Notes under the pieces: generated by a model
The model's input: the letters and a program-made list of their open reading frames with translations, nothing else
The model's database searches: none
What the model was told of the DNA's origin: nothing
Translations under genes and position numbers: made by a program
In this document: piece after piece, positions 4,901 to 25,114 of the stretch
How positions within the stretch are numbered: the stretch's first letter is position 1
Layout of the letters: each line of letters starts with the position of its first letter
DNA from: Phyllosticta citribraziliensis
Lineage: Eukaryota
Assembly (NCBI RefSeq): GCF_038025025.1
Contig: NW_027117344.1
Span: forward strand, 1,364,001 to 1,428,000
Length of the DNA stretch: 64,000 nt
Reading direction: 5' to 3'

Positions 4901-7149
4901 TGGTCATTCAGCTGCGGTCGTGGGCACACGGATGGAAAGGTAAAACCTCGTGTTCAGTGTTGGCAATTGTTGCTTACACGCCTTCATGCATGCGACACTG
5001 GTCTGTCCGAAACAGATCTCGGGACGCGATGCTTCCATTGCTTGGAAGACTTCGGGGTCGCCGAGCTCTGATCCCGGTCCGTACTCGGTATAGGCATCCC
5101 CAGGCGGCTTTGGGCATGGTCTTGTACCCAGAGGCAACGATTTCAAGACTGTCCTGAAAGCGGGCCAACGGCCGCTAGGAGGGTTCGGTACGGACTTCTG
5201 TGGTAGAGTGTGGCAGTGTCGCAGGATTTCTCGCCATTCAACACGACGTCCAGGTATCTATTCTGGCTGTGTATTCTCGAATATTTGCGGCGGTCGTTCC
5301 GTGTTTGCGTCCAACCCCGGTGCGCATCCTTGGGTGCGGATCCTTGGGTGCGGAGCAGATCGACAGGTGCTTCCCGGCGCTTTCCTCATCTTTCCGGTTT
5401 CCAAGGAAAGCCTCGCACTTCCGTCAAAGGACACTGCAATGTCGACAATCGAACTGGCGGACCTTTCCATTATTACAGTACACACGTTGATGAGCCCAGA
5501 TCGTGACGGTGAGCCATCCCTCCCCTGTTTATCTATCAGCAAACCAATCTCAGGCTGGAGAAGGTGTACTGTACATGTTCAAAGCCTCCCCGCCGTAACT
5601 CGCCAAACTACTCTGCGCCTTGCTAGCTTCTTACGGTATCTTTAGGGCGTGGCACTGGTTTTGCATGTCATGTTTGCTCCAGAGTCTTCCGCATCTCGCA
5701 GGGACAGTCGTGGCCGCGAGTTTAAGGTTACTACTTCAGTTAATCGCTCGAGTTGAATAGCCGGTGAGGCTGAAAACAAGGCTTGATCTTCCGTCATGGT
5801 ACAAAGCGAGTGTGTTGGGCGTTTCGCGTGGCTGATGAAAGTTAGTTTAGCGACAAGGCTTCTGCCAACGACAGGGATATCCATGAAATAACGGCTCGGT
5901 GGTGCAAGACTTTAGAACTTCGGAAGTCGAGTTGGAAGACCGTTGCCGGTCCGAACGGCTTCGTGGCCTCGAAACAAGGACAATTTGCCGCATCCTGCAA
6001 AGTGTTGGATCACAGGCATGACGAAGGCACTGTTTACCGTGATGCACTGCCTGCTAGCCCGGCGCATTATGATGCCCTTTTCGGCTTCGCCTCCTTTCTA
6101 TCGATTCTTCAGCCGTCCATTTCTTGTTCACTGATCGAAATGTGAGAGTTTCAATCCGGATACGTCCCGTCGAGGCGTTGCAAGGAAAAGCGACAAGGAT
6201 CGCTCGTCTTCTGGCTCGAACAAAGACAGCGATGATGCGTTCTTCAACCAGGTCGCTGTTTTCCAACTCTAACAGGCTTTCGGTCCAGCTGCTCCTGTGG
6301 CCTTGTCCACAACCTAAAATAGAGAGTTGTTTTTCGGGCCCCGTGTTGGTAAGTTGTGGCTGCTCGATAGTGATGGATGTGCAGGTGACGACACTGCAGG
6401 CCCGCGACTTCGCCCGCTATCTACTCCCAGAACAGGGTCGTGTGCGGCCCATCCATGACTTTATTTTTAGGTACAGGGAGAACAGGGCCTTGCTGCAGTC
6501 GAACACCCGTAGAACATCTTAAAGCACGCCATTGCAGCGGTCTTCATGTTTCAGTACGAAGCAAACCGGTCCTCTCAATTCTCGCCAATTATAATCTGCT
6601 CAAATCCCGCGTCTGGGTGAGGGTGGAGTTGAAACGATCAGCAAATTCTTTTGTCGCATTTCTCATTTGCGGTTGCATCAAAGATACCCGGGGCTTTTCT
6701 TAGCAGTGTTAACATGTTGCCAAGTCTCTACGTTGGTGTGAGTATCTCTACAAGATCCAAAGCCAAGTTGATTCAGCTGATGTTCCGAGAACAGGCTCTT
6801 TTAGGTGTAGCAGTACATTATGTAGCTGCCGCAGGATTTAGGACTGTTGGGTCGTCGGGCTGTACTGCGCAAATGGTGTTCCTCCAACCATTCACCGACA
6901 ACGCAATCTTCCTGGACAACTACCACCCAAACTACGGAGGACCTGGTGTCAACCTTCAAACTGGAGCACACGCACCTGACGAATATGTCTATGATGGAAC
7001 CAAGACTTCAGTGTTCAGCACTAAATTCAATTGGCGGACTGCAGCTTTGTAGAAGCTCAAACCCAAATCTAACACCTTTTGCTCTGCCGGAGCATTCTTT
7101 CCCGATGGCACTTTGATGAACCTTGCCGGAGCAGAACCTACTGCCAAAG

Positions 7150-10100
7150 GGCCGCCACTTTTCTGACACCCCTTATACAATTTCTGACACCTCCTCTACA
7201 ATTACTGACACCTCCCCCCCATAATGCCTGTGGCGCCTGCTATAGCACTGATAGCTAGATATTTAAAGTTATAATTACCTTGCTAAATTAGGTAAATTGT
7301 ATATAACTTATAATATTAATTCTATCTATATATCTATCTCTCTATATTACTTACCGCTATAAGGACAGTTTTAGATATAATAATAATAGTATAACTTTCC
7401 TACCTTATAAGGCTAAAGCGCGCGGCCTTACTACTATAGTAGCTACTAAGTAAATAGGTCTCTAGCTTTACTACTCTAAGGTCCCTTATTAGTATCCTCC
7501 TCTTATAATAATAGAATAGGCTTATACTTCTAAATCTCCTTCTAGTACTTCTACTTATACTCTTATACCCTCTTAACTCTATAGTTATAGATATTATAAG
7601 TAAAGTAGTAATACCTTAGTAGTATTATATACTAGCTATATTAGCTACTTTACTCTTCTAGCTACTCTTCTATCTACTCTTCTATCTACTCCTACTCCTC
7701 TATCTACTCCTCTACCTACTCTATTTAAATTAGTAGTTATAGAGAGGTTAGCTATATATACTTCTATTTCTCTACTATAGTAGCTCTAGCTATAGTTTAG
7801 CTATTTATTTAGTATTAAAGGTACTACTCTAGAGTAAAGTTACTATTACTATTAGCTTATATATTCTTATCTACTTATATATTCTTATCTACTTATATAT
7901 TCTTATCTACTTATATATTCTTATCTACTTATATATTACTTTCTTTTTTATCTTCCTTATCTTCCTCCTCTTTCTTATTACTACTAACTTTAACTATATT
8001 CCTAGTAGTATTTATATAGCGCCTCTTTTTTAACTTTTACTTATCTACTATAAGAGAGAGAAGTATATTAAGTAACTCTTAGATATCTAGCTATTTTATA
8101 GCCTTCTTAGTTCTTTTTAATATAACCTTCTTTCTCTTTTAAATAGTACTTTATATAGTATCTTCCCTTTACTCCTCTACTTTAAACTAAGATAGCTATT
8201 AGTATATATTATTTCTTAGCTAACTATATTATCTAATAATATATACTAGGTCCTAGATATAGCTATACTCTCCTAGTAGCTATAGATAGATAGAGTTTAC
8301 TAGAGATAGAGAAGGAGTTATACTACTATATTTAATAAAAGTAGTATATATATACTTATTAGAAGGGTAAAGGTACTAATATAGATTAATATTATAGAGC
8401 CTAACCTGCTATTTATTATTATTACTAAGTACTTAATAGATAGTATAGATATAGATAATACTATATATTCCTATAAAGTTAAGAGAATAGATATAAGTAA
8501 ATTATTAATCTTCTTCTAGTATATACTCCTACTTTATAAGTCTTATTTAAGTAAGGAGTAGATTTAGAGTAAAGTATAAAACTTTCTCCTTAACCTTCTA
8601 GCTAATATTTAGGTCTAACTTAATAGAGTATATAGTATAGCTATACTCCTTACTAATTTATTATATAATCTTTATATACTTATTAGCTATAAATACTATA
8701 ACCTTATCCTTAACCTTTAAGAGATTACTAGTAGATAAAAGAAGATATAATTTAATATAGTAATAGGTACCTTTAAGCTTTAAAGTAATAGTATTTCTAT
8801 AGTATTAGTAGTAGAATATCTAGATAGTAGACTATTTCTCCTTATATAAAAGCTACTCTAAATTAATATAGTTAATAAGGATACTAAACTCTATATTATA
8901 ATTAGCTTAAAACTTAGCCTAGTATATATTAAAATTAGCTTTATTCTTAATATATATAAGATTATAGAAGTAGCTTTAAAACTTCTTTTACTTTACTCTT
9001 AATTTATCTTACTCCTTAGGCTCTTATTAGCTATTAACTTACTAAGCCTACTTTATATAAACTAGGATATTTTTAAGGATATACTATATATAAAGAAGCT
9101 AAGAGATATTAGAGAAGTAGATTCTAAGAGCCTTCCTTAAAGTATCTTCTTTATTAGTAAGAAAGAGGTATACCTTATCTTTAATTTTATACTAATAGAG
9201 TAGATCCTTAAAGAACTAAATTATAGTATTATATATAGGTTCTAATTTATTAGGAAGGAAGTAGATACTAATAGTAAAGACTAAGTTAGTATAAATAATA
9301 CTAATAATTTAGAGGAGTAGTATATTATACTTATTAATTTTATAAGTAGTATCTATAAGGATTACCTCTAGCTAGTACTAGAGAAGAGAGATAGCTATAA
9401 TATATATAAAGAAGAGGATATAAACCTACTATATATTATCTAGTTAGTAGAGAACCTACTACTTATCTTAATTAGCTTTTAACTTATTAAGTAGAGCCTA
9501 TATAGTAGTCCTTCCCTAAAGCTATTTAAGCTTATACTTATACTTCTTAAAGTAGATATTACTAAGCCTAATATATAGATAACTAAGAGAGGGATTATTA
9601 TAGATAAGTAGCTAGATATACTTTATTAGTATACCTTAGTTAAAAAGGCGGCGTATTTATATTATAACCTTAAATAACTACTTCTAGTAGGTAGTATAGG
9701 CGCTTATATTAATAAAGTAGTTATATACTATCTTAATATAGTATATATTACCCTTATTATTAGGTGCATTAACTACTTATATATAGCTAGTAATAGAAAT
9801 AAGGATATCCTATTCCCTAGTAGTATCTTTATTAGTAGTCTAGTTATTATTAGTAATTATAATAAGGTGCTTATAGTAATAGCCTTTAATAGAGGTATAG
9901 TACTTAGTTACTTTAGAATTATACTCTTTATAGTAATTATAGTATATCTAGACCTTTATAATATAATCCTTCTTCTTTAACTTCTTTAAATATAAGATAT
10001 AGTAGGCGTAATTATACTCTTTTAACTAGGTAATTAAGGTATCTTAGGCGGCTTTTTAGGTGGTATATACTGACTTAGGTGGTAGTATAAGTAGGAGAGA

Positions 10101-10665
10101 TTCTAGCGCGCCTTTATTACTATTAGGTATAAAGATATAGTTAAATAAGGCAGCGGCACCTTTAAAGGCTTTACTTATTACTTGCTTTATACCGCGCGTA
10201 TTAGGTGTAGGGAGTGTAAGTAATACCTTACTAATTAGGTCGCTGGCTTTACTAAGAGTAAGGTCTTATTCTAGTAGAGTACTATAGCTGTGGCTGCGGC
10301 TGTAGCTATAGCTATAACTATAGCTGTAACTATAACTATAACTGCTATATTTACTACTACTATTACTCTAGGGTGGCATTATTATAAATAGTTAAGAGGT
10401 AAGAGGTAAGAAGTAAGAGGGAGAGAGGGAGAGAGGGAGAGAAAGAGAGGGAGAGAGTAGTAGTAGTAGTAGTAGTAGTAGTAACTAAGTACTATAGAGG
10501 TAACTAAGCACTGCTAAATTAGGTAGTTAGTAAGCTAATTAGTAGCTGGCGTTATAACTTTAAATATCTAGCTATAGGCGCCGCAAGTAATTATAGGGGG
10601 GAGGTGTTAGTAATTATAGAGGAGGTGTTAGAAATTATATAAGGGGTGTTAGAAAAGTAGCGGCC
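7150..10665 (-). mobile_element. Mutator-like (MULE) DNA transposon, full length (3516 bp), RIP-inactivated
   Basis: TIRs of ~115-125 bp (GGCCGCCACTTTTCTGACACC.. at left, ..GGTGTTAGAAAAGTAGCGGCC at right) with three internal CTGACACC repeats. TSD TGCCAAAG 7142-7149 / TGCTAAAG 10666-10673. Minus-strand MULE motifs readable through RIP: EVILxDxTYKxNKYNxxLL (ends ~9368) and QLLCIWHILKNI-like (~9066-9103). Confidence 0.92.
7856..7937. repeat. 18-bp tandem repeat (CTTATATATTCTTATCTA) x~4.5 inside the MULE
   Basis: Directly visible. The unit length is a multiple of 3, consistent with a former coding repeat in the transposase C-terminal region. Confidence 0.85.
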
Positions 10666-11676
10666 TGCTAAAGATAGGGTTAGTAATGGCTTTAATACTA
10701 TCTATAGGTACGCCCCTAGCCCTTATACTAGAGGTAAATATACTATAGACTAGATTAAAGGTCTATTATACCTCTAAGCTAGGAGATAGTATCTAATAGC
10801 TAAAGCTCTTACTAATAGAGATATCGTGGTTATAGGAGGGTCTAATAGAGGAGGTTTAGTTATAAATAAGGTTAATATAAACGTGCCGACTTATAAATTA
10901 GTAATATAAATAGGCGTGCTACCTCTACTAGTTAAACTACTAATTCTAGAGTTTACTAATAACGCCGATATAAATAAGGCCTATAACTTATACCTAATTT
11001 ATAAGTAAATATTCTTAATTAGATAAGGTATATAACTAACCCTTTTATAGTCGCCCTCCTTTCTAATAAGGTAAATACTAATAAAGTATTTACTCTAGCT
11101 AGTAATATAGCTGTTATCTAGAACTATAAGATGGATAAATTAGTTAAGACGCTTCTAGATACTCCTAAGTAGGCGCGTAACTTTCCTTCTTCTTTAACTA
11201 CGGTCCTACTACCTCTTTTAGCTACAAATAATTTTAAACCTACGATCCTGCTCTATAGTAGCAGCTCTAGTAATAAACCTGTGCCTAAGACCCTAGATGA
11301 CTACTACTATATTAAGCCTTATACTATAAATCTAATATAGGAGCAAGTTAATAATCTCCCTAATAGTAGATAGGTTATAATAGACTCTATCCTTCTTCCT
11401 AATAGCAAGGTGCTTTTTATTAACGGCGCGTATACTAGCTCTATAGGTAGTTTTATAGTAGACGACCTAGTTATAATCCTACTTATCTACGACCTAGCTA
11501 AGCTAGTTAGCTTACGCTTTATACTACTTCCTAAAGTTACAATCCTATAGATGTACCACTTAATCGCGTAGCTGCTGCTAAATAGGGAAGTATTAATCGC
11601 CAGCTCTAACCCCTTAGTTATATATAATAAGGGTGGTAAGGTCTTTAGTAACTGGCCTAACTTTAATAATAATAGA

Positions 11677-11943
11677 TGATAAAGTAAGATAAGAGAACTA
11701 AAGACTCTATTTAAGGCTACTCTAAGAGCTATCTATATACTGCTAAAACTACTAGGGGGAGTAGTAGCTAGTACTAACTACTAATAAGTCCTAAACTTAT
11801 TAAGATATATAAAGCTAATAGATAAGTATATCTTAACTAAAGTAGTAAGTTATTATCTAGATAAGCTATAGTTATCTAGGTAAACTATAGCTAAGATGAC
11901 GCGATAGGAGACTACTTAGTATTATTATATAGGACTACTAATA
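11677..11943 (-). repeat. Copia LTR (3' LTR of the minus-strand element), fully RIP-mutated
   Basis: Same length as 24848-25114 and aligns without gaps; differences seen are C>T and G>A. Confidence 0.93.
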
Positions 11944-14625
11944 CACCCCCTAGGATAAGAAAAGAGATAGTTATAGTAGAGTAGATATATAAGTAGTTAT
12001 ATTAACTAAATAGAAAACTTACTATATTAGTCTATACCTAATAAGGTTATAAAAGCAGTGGTGCTTAACTATTACTAATACTTTAGTAAGCCCGTCTATA
12101 ATTATCTTATTAGTAGAGATATAAGAGATAGTTACAGTTCTATCTATAACTGCCTACTTAATATACTAGTAGTATAGATTAATATGTTTTATAGTAGTAT
12201 TAAACTCTATACTATTAGTAAATTAGACGGCGTTCTTATTATTATTATAGAGCTAGATTAGTTAAGTATTAGGGCCCTTATAACCTATTTTAGTAAGAAC
12301 TTAAGTTATCTAGATAGCTTATTTAATAGTAGGAGTAAGGTTAATAAACTTAGCTTCTATTATAGATATACTAATAAGCTTCTATCTCCTACTCTTTATA
12401 TATAGTAAACCGCCTAAAGCCATGATAATGTAGCCTAATAAGGACTAATAAGTATCTAGATTATTAGTAAAAGCAGCATCTATATGGATTTATAAGCTAA
12501 GAGTGCTATTATTACTAGGGTGTAGAATGATTCTATAATTATATATACCCTATAAGTATTAAAGGACTTAGTAAGTAGTAGTAAGGTGTTTATTTAATAG
12601 GTTATAGGTATATTATAAGAGATAAGTAGTAGGGAAAAGAATAGCTAGGTGGCATCTTATTATATACTATATAAGTAAGCTAACAATCTTACTATAAAGC
12701 TATTAATAGTCTAGGTCGTTCTTGCCATTATACGCGCGTAATTTATAGGAATCTATTAGTATAAGGACGCGCGTAGTATTACTTATACTAAACTATATAA
12801 GAACGTTTTAAATATATCTACCTTAGAATAGTATAATTGTGCTATTTATATATTAATTAATATAAAGACTAAGGAAGTAATATAGTCGGCCTATATCTTT
12901 AAAGTAGATCTTAGTATTAAGTAGTGAGATAATTTTATTAACTTTAGACTTAGTTTTAGTAGTAATATAGAGATTATTAATATAGATAAGAATAAATATA
13001 AGCTTATCCTAGTATCTTATAATATAGGGTTCTAAAGGGAGAGAGCAGAAACCTAGATAGTATAAGAAATTATAGAGGTACTAAAACTAAGTAAGTAGTA
13101 ACTAGTATAAGCTATATAAGGCTCTTTAGAGATGCTAAACTTATTATAGGACCTGGTATCTAGGAGGTATATAGGTATAGACTAGGTCTTTTAGTAGTAT
13201 ATTAAGGAAGGCTATCTTAATATCCCCTTACTTATAAAATAAGTAATAATAGATGTTAATTACTAAAAATAGTATAAAAGTAGGAAATATAATAACTAGT
13301 AATAATACTTTAGATGTATTAAATCCCTTATATTAAAGATTACCTAAAACTATAACGCGGCTCTTATAGATAACCTTCTTACCTAGCTTATTAAGCTTAT
13401 AGACCTAGACCTATTATAGTAGTAGTACCTAAGAGCTATCTAATAGGTAGTTAGTCTCTTTAAAGGTACTAGTATTAGTTAACTCCTATATCTACTTATC
13501 TATAGAGGGTCTCTAATAGATAGATTTTAGCCCTATAAGGGCCTTATACTATAAGTAAGGTAGAACCTTATTAGTAGGGATGGCGTCTTATTAGTAATAA
13601 GTAGTATTTTCTATAGTAGTAAAGGCGCGTATATAGTAAGTAGATAGTTAAGGAGGTTAAGCATTATCTAAACTATATTTCTTATTAAAGAATTATATCT
13701 TAGTATGAATCTACTAAGGGTATTATAATAGTGCTATTAGTAGTAGAGTAGGTATAGGTAATAGAGATAGTAAGGGCGGTAGTAGAGTTAAAGTTAAGTT
13801 AGTAAGTACTAAATTATTAGATCTAGCGCATTTATTAGCTAGAGAGATATTAATCTAATCTATTTTATCTACTAATAGTATAATGTCTATAAACGCGTCC
13901 TCCTTACCTCTACTACTAATATCTATACTACCTATATTAGACCTCTCTACTACTTTAATTGCTTATTCTACTATATTATAGATTGCTTTAGTATTGCCTT
14001 TAAGAGTGTCTTAAACTGTTTTTAATATAAGATGTATAATAAGTGTCTTATTATTACTATTCTTAACTTTTCTATCTTCTATATTATTTATAGTAGCTAT
14101 TAAGTCTAGCTACTAAGGAGGTCTAAAATATATGTCCTAAGTATAGATAACCTAGTTTATTTAAGGGAGATATACCTAGAAGATATACTTATAGTTATAG
14201 CTAATAAACTATTCTTTCTCTACTCTTATATTAAATTTAGCGCTCTTAAGATGCTTCTTAGCTAGGATATAAGTATATATAGTAATACTAAAGACTAGTA
14301 CTAGTAACTAGACGTCCTTATACCTACTAATAGTATTATTAAAAATATTAACTAGTATCTTGCTATTAAGTGCGCGAGTGGGAAGATAGTTAAGAAGATA
14401 TACTATATATTAATAGGCTTCTATCTATAATAATTAAGGCGTATTTAACATGATACTTATAGAGTAGGCCATACTAGTAATAAGGTATATAGATAACTTA
14501 CTAATACTATTTTACTTAGGTAAGTATAGTGCTATCTTTTTAACCTTAATACCCTCTATCTTTACCTATACTAGTAGCTTTTAGCTGCTAAACTCTATGC
14601 TATTATCTATTTAGAGGGCTTAGAT

Positions 14626-15048
14626 TATTACGATAGGCGTATACGCGCCTATATAAGTACTAGGGCCAGTATAGATAAACCTAGTATTGCGCGGTTATAA
14701 GAAGCACAAGCCTCACCTTAGGTAGCAGCCTGCTATAGCTTAGGCTAAAACCTGCAGGCTGGTACTAGCTACTACAGCCTAGTACTAGCCACTATAGCCC
14801 TAGGTAGATACTATATAACAGCCTATTAATACCTTACCTTTATAACTTACCTAATAATAACTAAGGACCCTTATATAAAGGATAAGAGATAGAATAGTAT
14901 AAAGGAAGGACTAGGAAATATATAGGTAGTAAGTATCTTTTATATTTTATTCTTTTAACTTATTAGATTTAATTAAGATATATATATATTCTCTAGTAGT
15001 TTACCTTTAGCTCTTACCTATATAATAAGAAATCTATAAGTTATAATA
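14626..15048 (+). repeat. Gypsy 5' LTR
   Basis: Direct repeat of 22447-22869, same length; TATAAA at 14898-14903. Confidence 0.93.
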
Positions 15049-18000
15049 GATATAAAAGATCATTCTAAGTTTTAGCTCTATCCTACTTCTTTACCTATAA
15101 AGGTGTTATAATATTTGACCTAAGTAATATTATATATAGCTATAGTCTTATATAAGACTACTTGTTACTTTTCCCTAGTAAACCTAAGTCATCTTTATTA
15201 GGCGCATTGGTATTATCTAAGGACTAAGGAGTATTAAGTATATATTAACTATAGAAGTCTTTAGTTAAGGCTATAGGGTAGTATATAAATATTTAGGAGG
15301 TATCCTATCTATAACCTGCTTAAGGGACATTCTAAGTAGAAGACTATAAAGATAGTATAGCTAAGAATAAAGCTAACACATCTAGTACTACTAAAGGTGT
15401 TAGTACTAGTTAATTAACCTAATAAGATTCGCGTAAAGGAACTAAAGATTCGCGCAATACTAGATACTTATTAAATAATAATAAGAGAGGACCTACCCCT
15501 ATTCTCCTATATAATTTCTACTTAGTCCTAGTAGTAGAGGTAAAAGAATGTACCTAAGACCTAGGGTTAACTTATACAGTTTAAGCTCTAGTTATAGAGG
15601 CGTTTATAAAGGTACTATACTTAGATATTAATTAATTTAAATCTAAGATTGCATCCTTAAACAAGTCTTAAGTATAGTAGTAACTAAACCGCGCATAAAG
15701 GCAAAACTAGGCTCTTAAGTAAATACTCTTAAACTATACTAATAGACTTAGGGAAGTTCTAAGGGAAGGATATATTAGGCCCTCTTTATTAGCTTAGCAC
15801 CTAAGACCTATTACCCTCTCTTAAGATCCTTCTACTAGTAGAGTTATAAGGACTCTTAGACCTCCTCCTAACTATATAAGGGAAACTACTACTAAAACCT
15901 CTACTTTATCTTTAAGTAGTAAGAAATACTAAAGTAGTAAGGTTCCTAATCCTCCTCTTCTTACTAATAGAGAAGACCCCTTATATAAATACTAGACCCT
16001 CCTTATATAAAATAAAATTAAACAAAACCACAATTACTTTACTAAAGATATAGTAGAGGAGACTAAATAGAATATTACAGGTTATATTATTTCCTATATT
16101 AGTAGAGAAGTCTTATATTACCTAACTCCTTTTCTTACTTCTTATATAAAGGCTAATAAAGTTACTCTAGATAAGGATATCTTTAAATTCCTAGATAACC
16201 TCCTCTAGAGTCTATATAAATATAAGGATATAAAGAAGTAGTTATACTCTCTTATATACTGTATTCCTATAGACCTTTAGAAGTTTTAATTAAACTTTAT
16301 ATAATTAGCCTTAGATATAGATCTTCCCTAGGAATAGTAAAAAGAGGACTTTTATAATATAATAGATCCTCTCCTTTAAACCTATATAGTTACTATAGAG
16401 TAAGATAGGGATATTAACTTTTATAAGTACCTCTAATAAGCCTACCCTATTGCTTAAAGTCTTAGTAACTACTATTCTAACTATAGAAAACCAATACTCA
16501 CGTCGCGTAAGGAATAAGTAAAGAAGAGATAATAAGAATAAGTAAAGATAACTACCTTAGGCGGTATAAGTACTTTATCTTCTAGTCATGCCTAGGCGCG
16601 ATCTATATCTAGGGCTCCCTTATATAATATAACCTATAAAGGCAAAGTAGAAGTCTATATAGAGAGTAGACTATATAATTACTATAGCTAGTTTAGCTAT
16701 TTATAGAGATAATGCCCACAACCTAAGATAAAGGCAATAGAGTTAGTTAAAGAAGAAAGTACTAAAGATGTCTATATAAATAAAGGAGATTAGTCTTTAT
16801 TAGAAAATAATAAGGCCTAGGTAAAGTCTCCTACCTTAGGTCTAAACTTAGAGTAATATATATTAAAGGTTCTTATATAAATCTTAGTTACTTTATTAGA
16901 GGTGTACCCTTTACTATATAAACCTTAATTATATCTAATAGCCGCGCCTTAGAAATTTATACCCTAGCTAATACTAGTACTAGTAGTATAAGTTTTATTC
17001 ACCCTAAGCTACTACTAACTCTCCAGTCTATAGGTGCTATAAAAAAGAGAATAATAGGTAAAGGGCTTAATATTACTAGGTTTAACTAATATATAAATAA
17101 GAAAGTTAATTTTTACTTTTATCTTTAACTCTACTTCTAGGATTAAATAGTTTCTACTTATACTTTTATTTATAATATTGGCCATAATAACATAATTCTT
17201 AGGCGATAGTTTTTTAACTAGTACGATGTTCTTCTAGACTATAAATAATATAAACTAGTCTAGAGATAGCTACTAGTTAACTAATCCTTTTAGTATCTTT
17301 TACACCTACTAAAAGTCTCTATGTAAAGTAATAAACCACAGAAAGAACATTAAGTAGATATAGACTATAGAGATAAAAACTTTAATAAACGCCTTCTTCC
17401 CTTAGTATAGGTTATTAAGGGAATTAAATTTTAAACTTAAGATGCTTTTAAGCTTTCTATCTATAAAATATAAGTTATGCTAATAGAGATCTATACTATT
17501 AACCTTATATAAGTTTAAGTAGCTCTTAAAGATAAAGAAACTGAGGAATTATTAGCTTCTAAGCTACTAGCTACTTATAAGGAATTTTAAGATGTGTTTT
17601 CTAAAATAGAGTCTAATAAGCTACTACTATATCGCGTAGGGGTTAATTATAAAATATCTCTTATATATAATAGTCTACTAGAGCTTCTACCTAGTCCTCT
17701 CTATAGAATGTCTCTAGAGCAGCTTAAGGCTATAAAAGAGTATATTATTAAGAACCTTTAGAAAGGCTTTATTACTAAGAGCTTTACTACCTATACTTCT
17801 CCTATTCTTATAGTAAAAAAGCCTAGTAGGGGATGGAGATTTTACGTAGACTACTAATAGCTTAATAAATAAACTGCTAAGGATTTACACCCCCTTCCTC
17901 TTATTATAGAGTTGCTTTAGCGTGTTAGAAAGGGCAAAATTTATACTAAGCTTGATATTTAATAAGCTTTCTACTATATTTATCTTACTAAGGATTCTAA

Positions 18001-20659
18001 AGATAAGACTACCTTCTATATAAGATATAGCTTATTTAAATACTATATCTTGCTATTTAGATTAAGTAATAGACCTATAGCCTTTTAATATTTTATTAAC
18101 CAGGTTCTCTTTAAGTATTTAGATAATTTTATTATAGCTTTTATAAATAATATGCTTATTATCTCTAAAGACCCTACAGAGCACAAGGAATAAGTAAAAA
18201 AAGTACTAGTAAGACTATAAAAAGCAGGACTATAGGTAGATTTAAAGAAGAGTAAGTTTTTAGTTACTTATATAAAGTTCCTTAGATATATTGTTTCTAT
18301 AGAAGGCATTTAGATAGACCTAGATAAGGTAGAACCTATATAAAACTAGCTAATACCTAAAACCCTTAAAGCTCTTTAATCCTTCCTAGGTTTCTATAAT
18401 TTCTACTAATGATTTCTCCCTAACTATAGATAAATTAGCTGGCTATTAGAGAAACTATACTCTAAGGCAAAATAGTAACTACTAGGACCCCTAGAAGAGG
18501 AGGCAATTTAATAACTTAAGAAGCTAATATATAGTGATATACTTCTAGCTAACTATGACCCTACTCTTAATACTTATATAGAGACTAATATAAGTAATAG
18601 AGTTACTATAGGCATTTTAATGCAGCTCTAATAACCTTTATATAATTAGAAACTAGTAGCGTTCTACTCTAAGGTAATAGCTGATGCAGAACTTTATTAT
18701 AGAATATCTAATAAAGAACTGCTAGCTATTAAGAATAGACTAGAAGAATAGAGACTAATACTTATTAGCCTTAAAAAGCCTTTTCTTATAATAATAGACT
18801 ATTAGGCATTAGAGTACTACTCTACTAAACGACAACTTAATTAATAATAAGCTAGATGGTCTAAGTTTTTTATAGAGTTCCACATATAATTCTCCTATTA
18901 GCTAGGAAAGGAAAATATCATTACTAATTACCTTACTTAAAAATAAGAAGACCTAAAGACTTAAAAAGAAAAAGTAAAGGCTATATAAGAGATATGCCTT
19001 ATCCTACTAGAGACTATTATCCCTCTTTCTATTTTAGAATAAGAACTTCCTTCTCTAGTATTATTTTTAGATAAACTTCTCTATATAAACTAAGAAGATT
19101 CTAAATTAGAACTCTAGAGATAGAAGGCCCTCTTAAAAGACCTTAAATAAAGAAATAGTTAGGAACTAAAGGATGGTCTTTTATTATAATATAGTACCCT
19201 CTTTATACTAGATTGTGATAACCTCTATATAAGAATGCTTAATACTTTATATACTACCTATATAACTGCCTATCCTAGTATTATAAAGATGCGAAAACTC
19301 CTTAAGTAATATTACTACTAGCTAGCTATAAATTACATAATTAATATTTATAGGTAAGGATGCTATATTTGCTGCTAAATAAAGGAGTTTTATAATAAAG
19401 ACCTAGGCCTTCTATAACTACTAGAGATTCCTACTCGACCCTAGTAATACTTAGCTATAGATTTTAAAGAGATGCCTAAGGACTAAAAAGGCTATAATAT
19501 AATCCTAGTTATTATAGACTAGTTAAGTGGAAGAACCTTTAGCTTGCCTTATATAAAGAAGATTAATACTAAAGGAGTCTCTAGGCTTTTTTATAAATAT
19601 ATCTACTATATTTATAGAAACCCTAAGTCTATCCTATCTAACTAAGGCCCTTAGTTCATCTTAGCGTTTATAAATAAACTATATAAGCTAACTAGTATAG
19701 AGTAGCATTTTAACTTATCCTACTACTCTTAAACTAATAGTATTATAGAGATTGTTAATTAGCATCTTATATAAAGATTAAGACCTTTTATTAATTACTT
19801 TTAGAATAATTAGTCTAATCTTCTACTATTAATAGACCTTATACAAGTAACACTTCCCTATAAAGCTACTAGACTTTTACCTTTTAAGATTAAGTTAGGA
19901 TATTCCCCTTAAATATACTATAACTAGTAATAAAGAATAGAGACCCCCTAGTAACTAGAAAAGATAGCTCGTATAGTAGTATAAACACTATAAAAGAGAA
20001 GATAAGAAGCTTTTAAATTTATAAAGAATCTTATTCTTAAATCCTAAGAGTATATATACTAATAAGCTAATAAATACCGTCATGTGCTAGACTTTATAGT
20101 TAGAGATTATATCTATATTAAGAAAACTAGATGGTCTACTAATTAGCTAAACCTTAAATTAGACTTCCCTAATACTAGACCTTTTAAGATTATAGGAATA
20201 GAAGGACCCTCCTATATCCTTAATCTTCCCTTATATATAAAGATAGTTAACCTTTTCTATACTAATAGGCTATATAAGGCTAAAATGGAACAGCTTCCTA
20301 GTTAGGAATATACTAAACCTAAACCTAAGATTATTTAAGACGAGCCTAAGTGGGAAGTAGACTATATTTAAGCTAGTTAAGTCTTATATAGGAAGCTTTA
20401 ATACTAAGTTAAATAGACTAGATATAACTAAGATAACTAGTAGTATAACGTAAGTTCTTTTAGTAGTATACTATAGAAAATTAAAGAATTCCACTCATTA
20501 TACCCTATTATAGCAGGACTACTAAAAAATCTAGAAAAATAGAAGGCTGCCTTCCTCTAAGAAGAACTATAGATTAAAATAGAAAGTAATAATAAAACAA
20601 GTTACTTAGGCCTATAGTAAATATTATAAAGATATAGAAAGTAGACTGATTAGTTTACT

Positions 20660-21400
20660 ATCTACCCTTATATAAATACTATTAATCTTAACTTCTACTC
20701 TCTAGTCTCTCCTTTTTACTACTTATTTCCTACTATCCTCTTCTTTAATTTCTACCCTTTACTTCTTTCCTTTTCCCTTCTTCTTATTATAATAGTTATT
20801 ATATAAGACTATCTCTTCTAGATCCTCTAGCTTATTAGGCAGGATGTCCTACTTAGCTAAAGCCTAATTAGTTTAATCCTCTAACCTGGCTTAGTAGTAC
20901 AAGTTCTAGAACTCCTCTATATAAATTTTATCTTTATACCTCTTATAATAAGCAGGCGGCTTGGCACCCTTTAAGTTACTTATAGTATAGTTAAGGTTGC
21001 CTATACCCTAAAGGTAGTTGGCACAGCAGCCCTATAAGAAACCAGGTAGGTAGTAATAACTAATAAACGCGCGAGTATTAGTATTATCGCAACACTTAGT
21101 ATAGCTAATAGAGTTATTAATTCTAGTATACTAGATAAGAAAAGCATCGCATAAGCTGGCTTAAGTTTTAACTAATAAGTAGTTAAATTGCTAAGTAGAA
21201 ACTATAATATATAAGTAAGGCATATTATTACCTAAGGCCAAGATATACTTAGCGCGCTCTTATACTTTAGAACTACTAAGGTATACCTATATAGTTAGTT
21301 AGATAAGAATCCCTTATATTAGTAAGATAAACTTACTTATACGACACTCTCTATATTCTTATAAGGGATATAAAGCGTTAACTTAAAGTCCTACTTAATA
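20660..21400 (-). pseudogene. Relic antisense accessory ORF in the Gypsy 3' region with a Cys-rich DUF3716-like motif (boundaries approximate)
   Basis: Minus strand 21160-21005 reads SLCDAFLI*YTRINNSISYTKCCDNTNTRAFISYYYLPGFL*GCCANYL*G. Reversing RIP gives AxLIQxxG..CxKC..F..C..PG..GCCANCxW. A K/E/R-rich minus-strand tract follows at ~20700-20790. Confidence 0.55.
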
Positions 21401-22446
21401 GGCACCTTATTAGAGCTAACTAGCAATGCCACAACGCGAATCTCACTATTACTACTATTATATAAAGTAGCAGGTAGTAAGTACTTAGCTGCTAGAACCT
21501 AATAAGCTATAGGATTATAATAATAGTATATATAAGTAGGCTCTTTACCTTCTTCCTCTAAAATAGGCTGTGCGATAGCAAACTAGCAGCAATATAGCAT
21601 AATAGGCTAGTTAGTAGTAGGCTATACAGCTATAGATAATAAACCTCGCGCGATAACTAATAATACTAATTAAGTAGAACCTAATACTATAGTATACTAT
21701 AGGTAAAGTAACAAGCCTATAGCTATTCCTAGCTAAATAAGTAAAGCCTAGCCTAACTAAGTCTTTATATAAGTATCCTCCTCTATAATTATATCAGTCA
21801 GCAAGACAGGACAATAAAGTAGTAAAACCTAGATATATAATACTACTTAACAGCCTAGATAACAATTAGTAATAGTTAGAGATAGAATTAAAGTTTACTT
21901 ACCTTAGGACTCTATATAATAGTCCTTATAGATACTACTAGCTAAAACAGCTCTCTAAGTAAGTAGCAACTATAACAGATCGCGAACGACGCCATATAAT
22001 AATAACTTAATACTATAACTCTTATATAATAGTAATAAGTCCTAATAGACTAGACTATAATGAGTAGTAGATATATTAAGTATATAGCAGCCAGGAATAT
22101 CTACTTTACTATTAGTAGGGTATAAATCATTTAAATTATTAGAACCTTTATATATAATAGTTAGTTTACTAGATTATAGCTAAATTAGACTAGGGCAATA
22201 ATATACTTTAATAGAGAGCTTTAGATATAGCTAAATAAGATAGCAACCTTCTATAGGTCGCACAGTAAAAGAGATAGTAATAGAAAGAGATAGTATAGTA
22301 GTAGACCTAGACTAATAATTATACTTTATAACTATATAGAACGCTTAAATTACTAAATTACTACTATTATATATTATAAGTCTGCACCTATATAAGCGCC
22401 TATAGCTACTAATTCCTATAATTTTAGCTTCTCTTTAGGGGGGGCA

Positions 22447-22869
22447 TGTTATAATAGGTATATATATACCTATATAAGTACTAGGGCCAGTATAGATAAA
22501 CCTAGCATTATATAGTTATAAGAAGTACAAGCCTCACCTTAGGCAGCAGCCTGCTATAGCTTAGGCTAAAACCTACAGGCTGGCACTAGCTACTATAGCC
22601 TAGCACTAGCTACTATAGCCCTAGGTAGATACTATATAACAGCCTATTAACACCTTACCTTTATAACTTACCTAATAATAACTAAGGACCCTTATATAAA
22701 GGATAAGAGGTAGAATAGTATAAAGGAAGGACTAGGAAATATATAGATAGTAAGTATCTTTTATATTTTATTCTTTTAACTTATTAGATTTAATTAAGAT
22801 ATATATATATTCTCTAGCAGTTTACCTTTAGCCCTTACCTACGTAATAAGAAATCTACAAGTTGTGACA
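22447..22869 (+). repeat. Gypsy 3' LTR
   Basis: TG...CA termini, preceded by the polypurine tract and followed by TSD TAGAT. Confidence 0.93.
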
Positions 22870-24847
22870 TAGATCTTATATTAGAACTAGGTTTTAGTCT
22901 ATTTACTAAAGTTTTAAATACTATTAAAGGCGTCGCCCTTAGTCTTTATAACTAATAAGTATTATAGATATAAGTAGTCGTCTATAAATACCACCCCCTA
23001 ATAGCAGCTATTATGGCTGACTATAAGTGGTCTAAATATATTAATATAGACGCGTCTAAAGGGCGCGTCTGCTTAAGGTATTAGTTTATATAATACTATC
23101 TAGTAGGACTTAGCTATATAGCAGGATTTATAATAGAAGTCTTAGTTACTAGTAATAATAAGTTATCCCTAGTACTAGAGCTTATTAAGTATACTAGTAT
23201 AGACATACCCTAATTACTAGTACCACGTCTTATATATCGCTATAGGAGGAGTTACTATAGTAAATACTTATACTATATAATTATTATTAATAACTATTAG
23301 AATGTTCACCCCTAAACTATTAGAGTAAGCTATAATAGCTGTTCTATAGTTTTATATTTATAATATAGAGGTAAGCTAATCTAGGTATAGTCCCTTCTAC
23401 TTAAGTTTTAAAGCTAAGATAAGACTAACTATTAGTACTAGAATATATAGAACACCCTCTATTATAAGAGTATTAACTATACTATTTATAGGATAGTAGA
23501 GTATGGCGTTGCTATAGCTAATAGCTATTACTATACCTAAACTGTATACCTAGACTAGCTGCGCGAACTATAAGTAGTTTATTAGCTTAGTTAAATTTAG
23601 TATATAGTAGGTATTAGCCCTAGTATTAACAATCTATTCATCCTTTATTAAAGCTAGATATAGGTATAGGGTAGTAAAGTAGTTCGCGCCTTATACTAGA
23701 GGGTTAGTTATTAATATTATTATTACTATTACTACTATTAGTAGTTTAGAGACTTAATTATCTAGTATATAGAATACCCCTAATACTAGCTTCTAATAGG
23801 TGGGATAGTATTTAAGGTAAAGATAGCTATACTTAGCCTTAATATACCCCTTCTTTCTATAGTAATTATAGGTAGCACAGTTAGACTTAGACTACTTAGT
23901 AGACTGCTAACTAGTATAAATAGTAAGAGCTATAGTACTATTCTTACTAGTATATTTAATCTTATTAGTTATAGTATAGAAGAGATCCTTAAACTTAGGC
24001 ATCTCCTTCTTATTATACTAATTTATATACTAAGTTATATACTAGATAGGAATATCATCTTATAAGTTTTCTAAAAGTAGAATATAGAGAATCTAGTCCT
24101 TAACTTACTATTAGATATAGCTAATATAGGCTTACCTTTATTTATATAGGGCATTATAGAATTCCTTTACTATTATAAAATTACTATATTAATAGAAGAT
24201 AAAGTCCTTAATAATATTAGCCTTAGAGAGGATACCCTTAGTATTATATATATTATAAAGCTTCTACTATATAGAGTAAGCTAAACTAGTATACCCCTAT
24301 AGTACTATTATAATAGGAAGTATAATAATTATTATAAACTAGTAGATAATATATATATCCTTCTTATAATTAGTAGCATTTTTTAGCTTATCCTTAAGTA
24401 GATAGGCATAATAGAATAGACTAAGCCTTATCTTAACTATTATCTTAAAGGTTACCTAGTTAGTAGGGCCTTTAAGTAGCTAGATATTCTTTAAAGGGAT
24501 ACTAAACTTACTATTATTTATAGTTAGGTCTACCTCTTCTTTAGCCTTAGCCTACTTAGCTAGTATAGAAGATAAGGCAGCAGTAAAGCCTAAACTACTA
24601 GATAATAAGGGAGGAAGGGAAGGTAAAGTTATAGTAAAGATAATAACTATTAGTATATTACTTAGAGTTATAGAGATAGATAATACTAATAAATTTACTA
24701 AAGAGTAGGAATTATATAAGATAATAAGGGATAAAATAATAAAATAATAAAATAACTATTAGTAATAATTATATAGATAGTATTATAGTATAACACTAAA
24801 ATAAGCTAGATAAGCAATTTATATATGTAATATAAGGGCTTATAACC

Positions 24848-25114
24848 TAATAAAGTAAGATAAGAGAACTAAAGACTCTATTTAAGGCTACTCTAAGAGC
24901 TATCTATATACTGCTAAAACTACCAGGGGGAGTAGTAGCCGGTACCAACTACTAATAAGTCCTAAACTCATTAAGACGCGCAAAGCCAACAGACAAGCAC
25001 ATCTCAACTAAAGCAGTAAGTCATCATCCAGACAAGCTACAGTCATCCAGGCAAACTACAGCTGAGACGACGCGATGGGAGACTGCTTGGTGTTGTTACA
25101 CAGGACCACCAACA
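24848..25114 (-). repeat. Copia LTR (5' LTR); outer part largely escaped RIP
   Basis: Ends ..GGACCACCAACA and retains CpA/CpG sites that are TpA in the partner LTR. Confidence 0.93.

Follow-up and report, generated by a model that had tools for sequence, protein, structure and literature searches.

The question raised by this locus is whether the stretch between pol and the 3′ LTR of a fungal Ty3/Gypsy element encodes a further protein on the strand opposite to gag and pol and, if so, what such a protein might do for the element that carries it. An earlier note on this DNA had described a single antisense Cys-rich ORF there, likened it to DUF3716 proteins, and put it forward as an undescribed component. 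Here, we studied the element, its copies in the same genome, and the DUF3716 genes of the host; publications cited by PMC number are used as far as their available passages go. The antisense gene is almost certainly real, and in none of the copies studied (n = 30) has it escaped disruption by RIP. An antisense, family-wide, six-Cys DUF3716-like gene in a Gypsy element is what we find, whereas its description as an undescribed component is not supported, since the layout has been published for brtn and for plant antisense ORFs (aORFs), and DUF3716 genes have been published from a fungal DNA transposon.

A RIP-degraded Gypsy element nested in a Copia element

The window, by which we mean the whole 64-kb stretch analysed, covers positions 1,364,001-1,428,000 of NW_027117344.1 (G000:C7:1364001-1428000) in the 31.35-Mb genome of Phyllosticta citribraziliensis, and its positions 7100-25100 form an AT-rich nest of elements with RIP marks. 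The nest includes a RIP-degraded MULE DNA transposon (7150-10665) with 76-nt terminal inverted repeats and a minus-strand frame that matches MULE PF10551 (E 1e-7), and a minus-strand Copia element (11679-25112; RVT_2, E 6e-10) that has 15 matches in the genome and is split by a Gypsy insertion. The inserted element (14626..22869, plus strand) is full-length and RIP-degraded, with a GC content of ~0.29 and RIP indices, and has at least 40 genomic copies. Its membership in Ty3/Gypsy draws on a combination of signals, namely, two LTRs of 423 nt each (14626..15048 and 22447..22869, plus strand), a 5-bp target duplication (TAGAT), a plus-strand polypurine tract, AGGGGGGG, at 22437-22444, and the order of the pol domains. 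Elsewhere in the genome, copies of this Gypsy family apparently sit nested in copies of the same family (L002/L018 at G000:C3:866000-874500, and G000:C5:1377000-1389300).

The gag region (15300..16799, plus strand, bounds approximate) has no Pfam match, and a purine/pyrimidine codon model prefers the +0/-2 frame pair for it. The pol frame (16802..20641, plus strand, frame +2), when read with X at stops, matches RVT_1 at 338-496 (E 1e-16), RT_RNaseH at 586-693 (E 5e-14), and, weakly, rve at 878-953 (E 0.026), which gives the reverse transcriptase (RT), RNase H, integrase order of Gypsy elements. Pfam matches are lost through RIP damage over the last 386 codons of pol as well; the chromodomain-like end was recognized by eye only, and a chromodomain had no Pfam match in the window copy or three other copies and no PDB match. 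Within a well-conserved stretch (20600-20660), pol and the antisense frame come to their ends against each other, and the two may overlap tail to tail.

A spliced minus-strand gene found across the family

The distance of about 1.8 kb claimed between the end of pol and the polypurine tract agrees with the 1806 nt that we measured from the end of pol (~20641) to the 3′ LTR (22447). The minus-strand peptides quoted in the earlier note all lie in one minus frame (codon starts p mod 3 = 1), which reads DAFLIXYTR..SYTKCC..RAF..YYLPGFLXGCCANYLXG and then enters the K/E/R-rich tract that had been reported, with 24 such residues out of 60. The idea of one ORF has to be given up: the gene is spliced, with at least two canonical introns. 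Its last exon (20650..21286, minus strand) holds the DUF3716-like domain and a K/E/R-rich tail, with the true stop somewhere near 20626-20700, and is preceded by a 50-nt, phase-0 intron (21287..21336, minus strand; GTAAGT ... ACTAAC ... TAG) whose length and phase put the middle exon in register with the Cys codons. Both the donor and the branch point plus acceptor of this intron are present in 30/30 copies; among the further copies used below, the donor is kept in 8/9 and the acceptor in 9/9 while the interior takes indels. The middle exon (21337..21854, minus strand, ~172 codons) is defined by its transversion bias and frame-keeping indels, and a Pfam search found no known domain in it. It is preceded by a 48-nt, phase-1 intron (21855..21902, minus strand; GTRAGT ... 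RCTAAT ... YAG), with the donor in 24/30 copies and the branch point plus acceptor in 30/30, and by a tentative upstream exon (21903..22050, minus strand) that contains many indels. The highly variable interval 22050-22210 may hold another intron. The encoded protein spans at least ~380 codons, with a charged tail following the six-Cys DUF3716 domain.

In antisense, introns outlast retrotransposition, as splicing does not remove them from the genomic RNA. Introns survive reverse transcription in no other orientation, and this accounts for the orientation of the gene. Two contig-level runs, with neither the RNA or DNA kind nor the strand specified, yielded scattered pieces and no splice joint. 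A contig of run X2 (RNA or DNA kind unspecified) at window positions 22473-22625 ends with GC-richer LTR-like letters that include TCGCGCG.

The objection that the segment might be a private insertion fails, as a search with 20660-21660 finds copies at 89-100% identity (40 scored of 58 candidates). In copies chosen by RT DNA alone, an antisense Cys match lies 2.0-3.2 kb downstream of RT in 38/40, and the two without one appear to sit at nested insertions. Counted over the RT matches of all families, 49/77 have an antisense Cys match downstream, and 49/54 Cys matches pair with an opposite-strand RT. No intact copy occurs among the 30; the last exon carries 12-16 stops, and stops also occur in 76/77 RT matches.

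Homology to DUF3716

Sequence comparison makes it very probable that the antisense protein is homologous to DUF3716. The six-Cys motif, C-x2-C-x11-C-x10-C-x2-C-x8-C, occupies 20987..21103 on the minus strand, and its six columns (21103, 21094, 21058, 21025, 21016, and 20989) contain only Cys or Tyr, with Cys in 8, 9, 7, 21, 19, and 5 of 30 copies, respectively. Of the “CC” pairs quoted in the earlier note, just one Cys per pair is a fixed column; the other (columns 21091 and 21028) varies between R, C, H, and Y and lies outside the motif. The spacing in the element (x2, x11, x10, x2, x8) compares with x2, x12, x10, x2, x8 in the host protein P0001, which scores above the Pfam DUF3716 cut-off.

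When a DUF3716 profile is built solely from four intact Phyllosticta proteins, leaving all transposon sequence out, it recovers this frame at this position in 26/30 copies, 15 of them at E<=0.004. The window copy scores 19.1 bits with this profile (E 1e-5), and the best off-target score among 198 six-frame translations is -1.7 bits. The Pfam model (PF12511, cut-off 22 bits) matches 3/30 broken copies at 16-18 bits (E 0.003-0.01), none of which reaches the cut-off; the window copy, with its RIP-broken frame, has no Pfam DUF3716 match, and two other copies weakly match an unrelated Pfam family. By BLASTP, the window frame aligns with a host DUF3716 gene at E 8e-7, with 26% identity over 66 residues, and a genome-wide search with the host DUF3716 domain recovers, besides its own locus, two further host frames and two Gypsy family copies (E 0.003 and 0.007).

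The host has two intact DUF3716 genes that score over the cut-off and lie in GC-normal DNA, L031 (G000:C11:1304896) and L032 (G000:C12:1431642), both with counterparts in P. citriasiana. At a distance of ~1 kb from L032 lies a RIPped stretch whose last part, at the contig end, is LTR sequence of the Gypsy family. In two duplicated near-terminal frames, L036 (G000:C5:17298) and L037 (G000:C13:1340782), the match to the DUF3716 domain is confined to its first half. Searches farther afield gave little: a protein profile search based on 21 of the 30 copies (111-356 aa) and a HMMER search with the broken frame over 1.84 billion representatives found nothing, the host DUF3716 domain alone gave no candidate as a protein query, and a mixed profile run against longer proteins returned only five Phyllosticta host proteins. 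Scans of viral and metagenome contigs gave no locus and no intact Gypsy element with an antisense DUF3716 gene. AlphaFold models of the host DUF3716 protein were poor (pLDDT 50 and 42), and Foldseek and PDB sequence searches returned nothing significant.

Selection on the antisense protein

Because RIP makes only transitions, transversions record the earlier evolution of the element, and we used them to look for codon structure in nine further copies, seven of which are 73-89% like the window copy. Transversions were counted as distinct columns, and since the copies are related the following counts are not of independent events: in pol, 151/212 transversions fall at third positions (23/151/38 by position in its own frame), compared with 28/47 in the DUF exon (20860-21286; P 2e-4; 8/11/28) and 35/63 in the middle exon (P 2e-4; 4/17/4 plus 9/18/11). 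In both exons the bias is to the third position of the minus frame and not to that of its plus-strand shadow. The charged tail shows no significant excess (10/26), and neither does the tentative upstream exon (29/68 over 21903-22160, P 0.07). Indels follow the same map. The net indel is 0 in 6/6 divergent copies covered for the DUF exon and a multiple of 3 in 6/7 divergent copies for the middle exon; in the 48-nt intron, it is not a multiple of 3 in 5/6. The third-position bias of the minus frame between sublineages thus shows that the antisense protein was under purifying selection inside the element.

Other signals proved less suitable. Counting stops shared by all copies was rejected as a marker of the coding frame, because pol also has such stops (20/466 columns, compared with 9/212 in the DUF exon), and for the same reason asking whether a frame becomes open once RIP is reversed is a weak test here. 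The purine/pyrimidine codon model identifies the correct pair of frames without telling which strand is coding. For 21600-21854, which is the weaker half of the middle-exon signal (18/38 third-position), frame -1 was favoured by stop count and codon model and was set aside because transversions and frame-keeping indels favour frame -0.

A CG palindrome in the element

A motif survey over 21 natural copies and 7.8 kb placed two CG palindromes at the top, CGCGCG with 16 sites and TCGCGCGA with five. The five (15429, 16503, 21147, 21337, and 21646; span 15429..21653) are each intact in at least three natural copies, compared with 0.16 sites expected from the 649 in the genome; further CGCGCG sites lie at 14688, 15690, 17633, 19226, 20081, 21068, 21993, 22149, and 22259. 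The longer word TCGCGCG has 14 sites versus 1.8 expected under a host Markov model, an excess to be read in the knowledge that TCGCGCG(A) was chosen after looking, and GCGCGC is at expectation (5 vs 4.8). CGCGCG density peaks around the antisense gene, with 7-8 sites in 1.8 kb. The palindrome sites are old because RIP cannot create C or G. A lattice of sites at 150-160 bp was not visible, and GGTTC, an early guess, was dropped.

What these sites are for is a separate matter. That TCGCGCG(A) is a functional word seems to us a little short of an even call, and it is unlikely to be the target of the DUF3716 protein of the element itself. We lean slightly toward a motif unrelated to DUF3716, be it a host transcription-factor site, a Ser-Arg codon habit, or an effect of which sites survive RIP. 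APSES/MBF-type factors have CGCG-core sites. As a control, the Copia element, whose window copy has no match to the DUF3716 profile, keeps CGCGCG at 4 sites in 2.9 kb (13 copies), a density similar to that of Gypsy gag-pol (5 in 4.6 kb), and its sites are mostly flanked by A/T, as in ACGCGCGT at 12733 and 12768, all of which favours an unrelated motif. So do the clustering of remaining CpGs at all short distances and the Ser-Arg reading of several motif sites within gag and the antisense gene. In Pseudocercospora, the promoter of a host gene carries a repeated element whose core is a similar palindrome, TCGTACGA (PMC6637983), and this keeps the host-factor reading in play. In our survey, TCGTACGA was intact 0 times over the 21 copies and 7.8 kb, with CGTACG at two single-copy sites; RIP could hide TCGTACGA sites, yet the CG that stands at the palindrome centre cannot have arisen from TA through RIP. 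Several observations count against an unrelated motif: RIP cannot have made the C and G letters of the sites; the T flank is fixed in 20/20 or 30/30 copies, and TCG is the least surviving context (TCGA at four sites); and TCGCGCG occurs at one Copia site compared with 18-19 Gypsy sites counted strand-wise at equal depth.

Comparison with known systems

The position of the gene is already known from brtn and the plant aORFs, and what appears to be new is the named domain. brtn is an antisense extra gene of Boty-like Ty3/Gypsy elements in Botrytis cinerea and Sclerotinia (Zhao et al. 2011, Virology 417:248, via PMC7264820, PMC8365987, PMC4227169), and in both cases a fungal Gypsy element, which in Phyllosticta has a chromodomain-like end of pol, carries an additional gene that runs opposite to gag-pol and sits in the interval from pol to the 3′ LTR. 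For the Phyllosticta gene, we could name the domain, map two introns, and show selection, and the copies examined are all dead. Plant aORF-3R genes, including gene23 of maize Grande and those of rice RIRE2, Silene Retand, and PvRetro13, share position and orientation and are present in most copies, where they are conserved like core genes (PMC7264820). DUF3716 is not named for these plant genes, and that review reports no clear similarity of them to other proteins and none to genes located beyond the elements, whereas the Phyllosticta gene has host relatives. The Phyllosticta element has the feature common to the brtn and aORF-3R types, an additional antisense ORF between pol and the 3′ LTR.

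DUF3716 genes have been reported in another fungal transposon, as REP9-1 and REP9-2 of the IS3EU-like DNA transposon REP9 in Zymoseptoria tritici, which, unlike the Phyllosticta element, is class II with terminal inverted repeats, intact, and expressed (PMC8232023). The ORFs of Styx, apparently the same element as REP9, were named GATA, CCHC, and DUF3577 instead (PMC10853768). Outside transposons, likeness extends to the DUF3716 protein PSC58, whose ortholog NCU05718 binds double-stranded DNA sequence-specifically; however, both are host genes, and the binding domain is unmapped there, so that the binder need not be DUF3716 (PMC4650311, PMC10776026). As a functional model only, and with no claim of family, we also considered VANC of the Arabidopsis VANDAL transposons, a transposon-encoded protein whose short target motif is enriched within its family and differs in related families (PMC5735166). 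VANC motifs form dense, same-orientation arrays in non-coding DNA, and for VANC binding and demethylation are demonstrated (PMC5735166), whereas the Phyllosticta sites are sparse palindromes, mostly in coding DNA.

A literature search, with subscription papers outside its range, found no publication linking DUF3716, an antisense Gypsy gene, and the palindrome, and none of the DUF3716 passages found within the same range concerns an LTR element. For decades, no function could be assigned to the extra genes that lie antisense in LTR elements (PMC7264820). To this subject, the present analysis adds a strand-resolved selection test, an exon map, an unbiased copy count, and a palindrome with a tempering control. 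The locus is a further, and dead, example, and its value lies in the selection evidence, the exon map, and the motif. A named domain with host relatives, one DNA-binding ortholog, and occurrence in a second transposon class makes the question of function testable with intact natural proteins.

What the antisense protein might do

For the reading that the antisense protein is a DNA-binding regulator of its own element, we see the arguments as evenly poised. The active ancestor of the Gypsy lineage carried a third, spliced, minus-strand gene between pol and the 3′ LTR, with the antisense transcript presumably arising from an internal promoter or an antisense promoter in the 3′ LTR. Its product would be a zinc-binding, sequence-specific binder of double-stranded DNA that acts on the DNA of the element, possibly through the TCGCGCG(A) sites, and keeps the element transcribed, either as a transactivator or as a VANC-like anti-silencing factor. 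Neurospora NCU05718 binds double-stranded TTAGGG directly and without an annotated DNA-binding domain (PMC4650311), and it has been called the ortholog of the DUF3716 protein PSC58 of F. graminearum, which is among the edited pseudogenes tied to ascus and ascospore development (PMC10776026). In Zymoseptoria, the three further genes of the REP9 transposon were induced when the DUF3716 gene REP9-1 was overexpressed; when REP9-1 was silenced, expression of the neighbours was unchanged (PMC8232023). A broader proposal, that DUF3716 is the fungal counterpart of VANC, a transposon zinc domain that recognizes a short CG-rich palindrome of the element carrying it and thereby protects or activates that element, with words that diverge between families, strikes us as improbable. 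Were the motif link true, fungi would have a sequence-specific counter-silencing system and DUF3716 would gain a function; were the VANC comparison also to hold, a family-specific code of self-recognition would be common to fungal retrotransposons and DNA transposons.

DNA is not the only partner of Cys-rich domains and charged tails, which bind RNA or proteins as well. The protein could thus work elsewhere, on RNA, the particle, the integration complex, or host development in a way that favours spread, which we regard as the most serious alternative, if a rather unlikely one. REP9-1 lowers pycnidia formation (PMC8232023), PSC58 is tied to ascus and ascospore development (PMC10776026), and the plant review leaves room for nuclear import and other accessory roles (PMC7264820). 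Set against this, the sole biochemical datum seen is the binding of double-stranded DNA by the ortholog of a DUF3716 protein, and overexpressed REP9-1 induced the genes of its own element (PMC8232023). We retain regulation of the element by DNA binding as the preferred reading.

That the gene is a passive passenger, a captured host DUF3716 gene of no service to the element, is very unlikely. The host genome does have intact DUF3716 genes, and capture in antisense would preserve introns; however, third-position bias and frame-keeping indels across sublineages that are 73-89% alike indicate selection while inside the element, and the resemblance to the host gene amounts to just 26% across 66 residues. 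Least probable is a role for the antisense RNA in place of the protein, with double-stranded RNA limiting the element as proposed for plant antisense ORFs (PMC7264820) and the conserved block at 22210-22445 a possible source of the transcript, because codon-position bias, six kept Cys columns, and frame-joining introns would go unexplained, although such a role might hold in addition.

The block itself (22210..22445, unstranded) is non-coding, lies beside the polypurine tract, and is a candidate antisense promoter or cis element. It has 1.3-3.3 transversions per 100 nt, compared with 8-13 in 22000-22200, and no codon bias, and it may be an antisense promoter or a replication signal (packaging or plus-strand priming). 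Between sublineages, it is better conserved than the adjoining exons.
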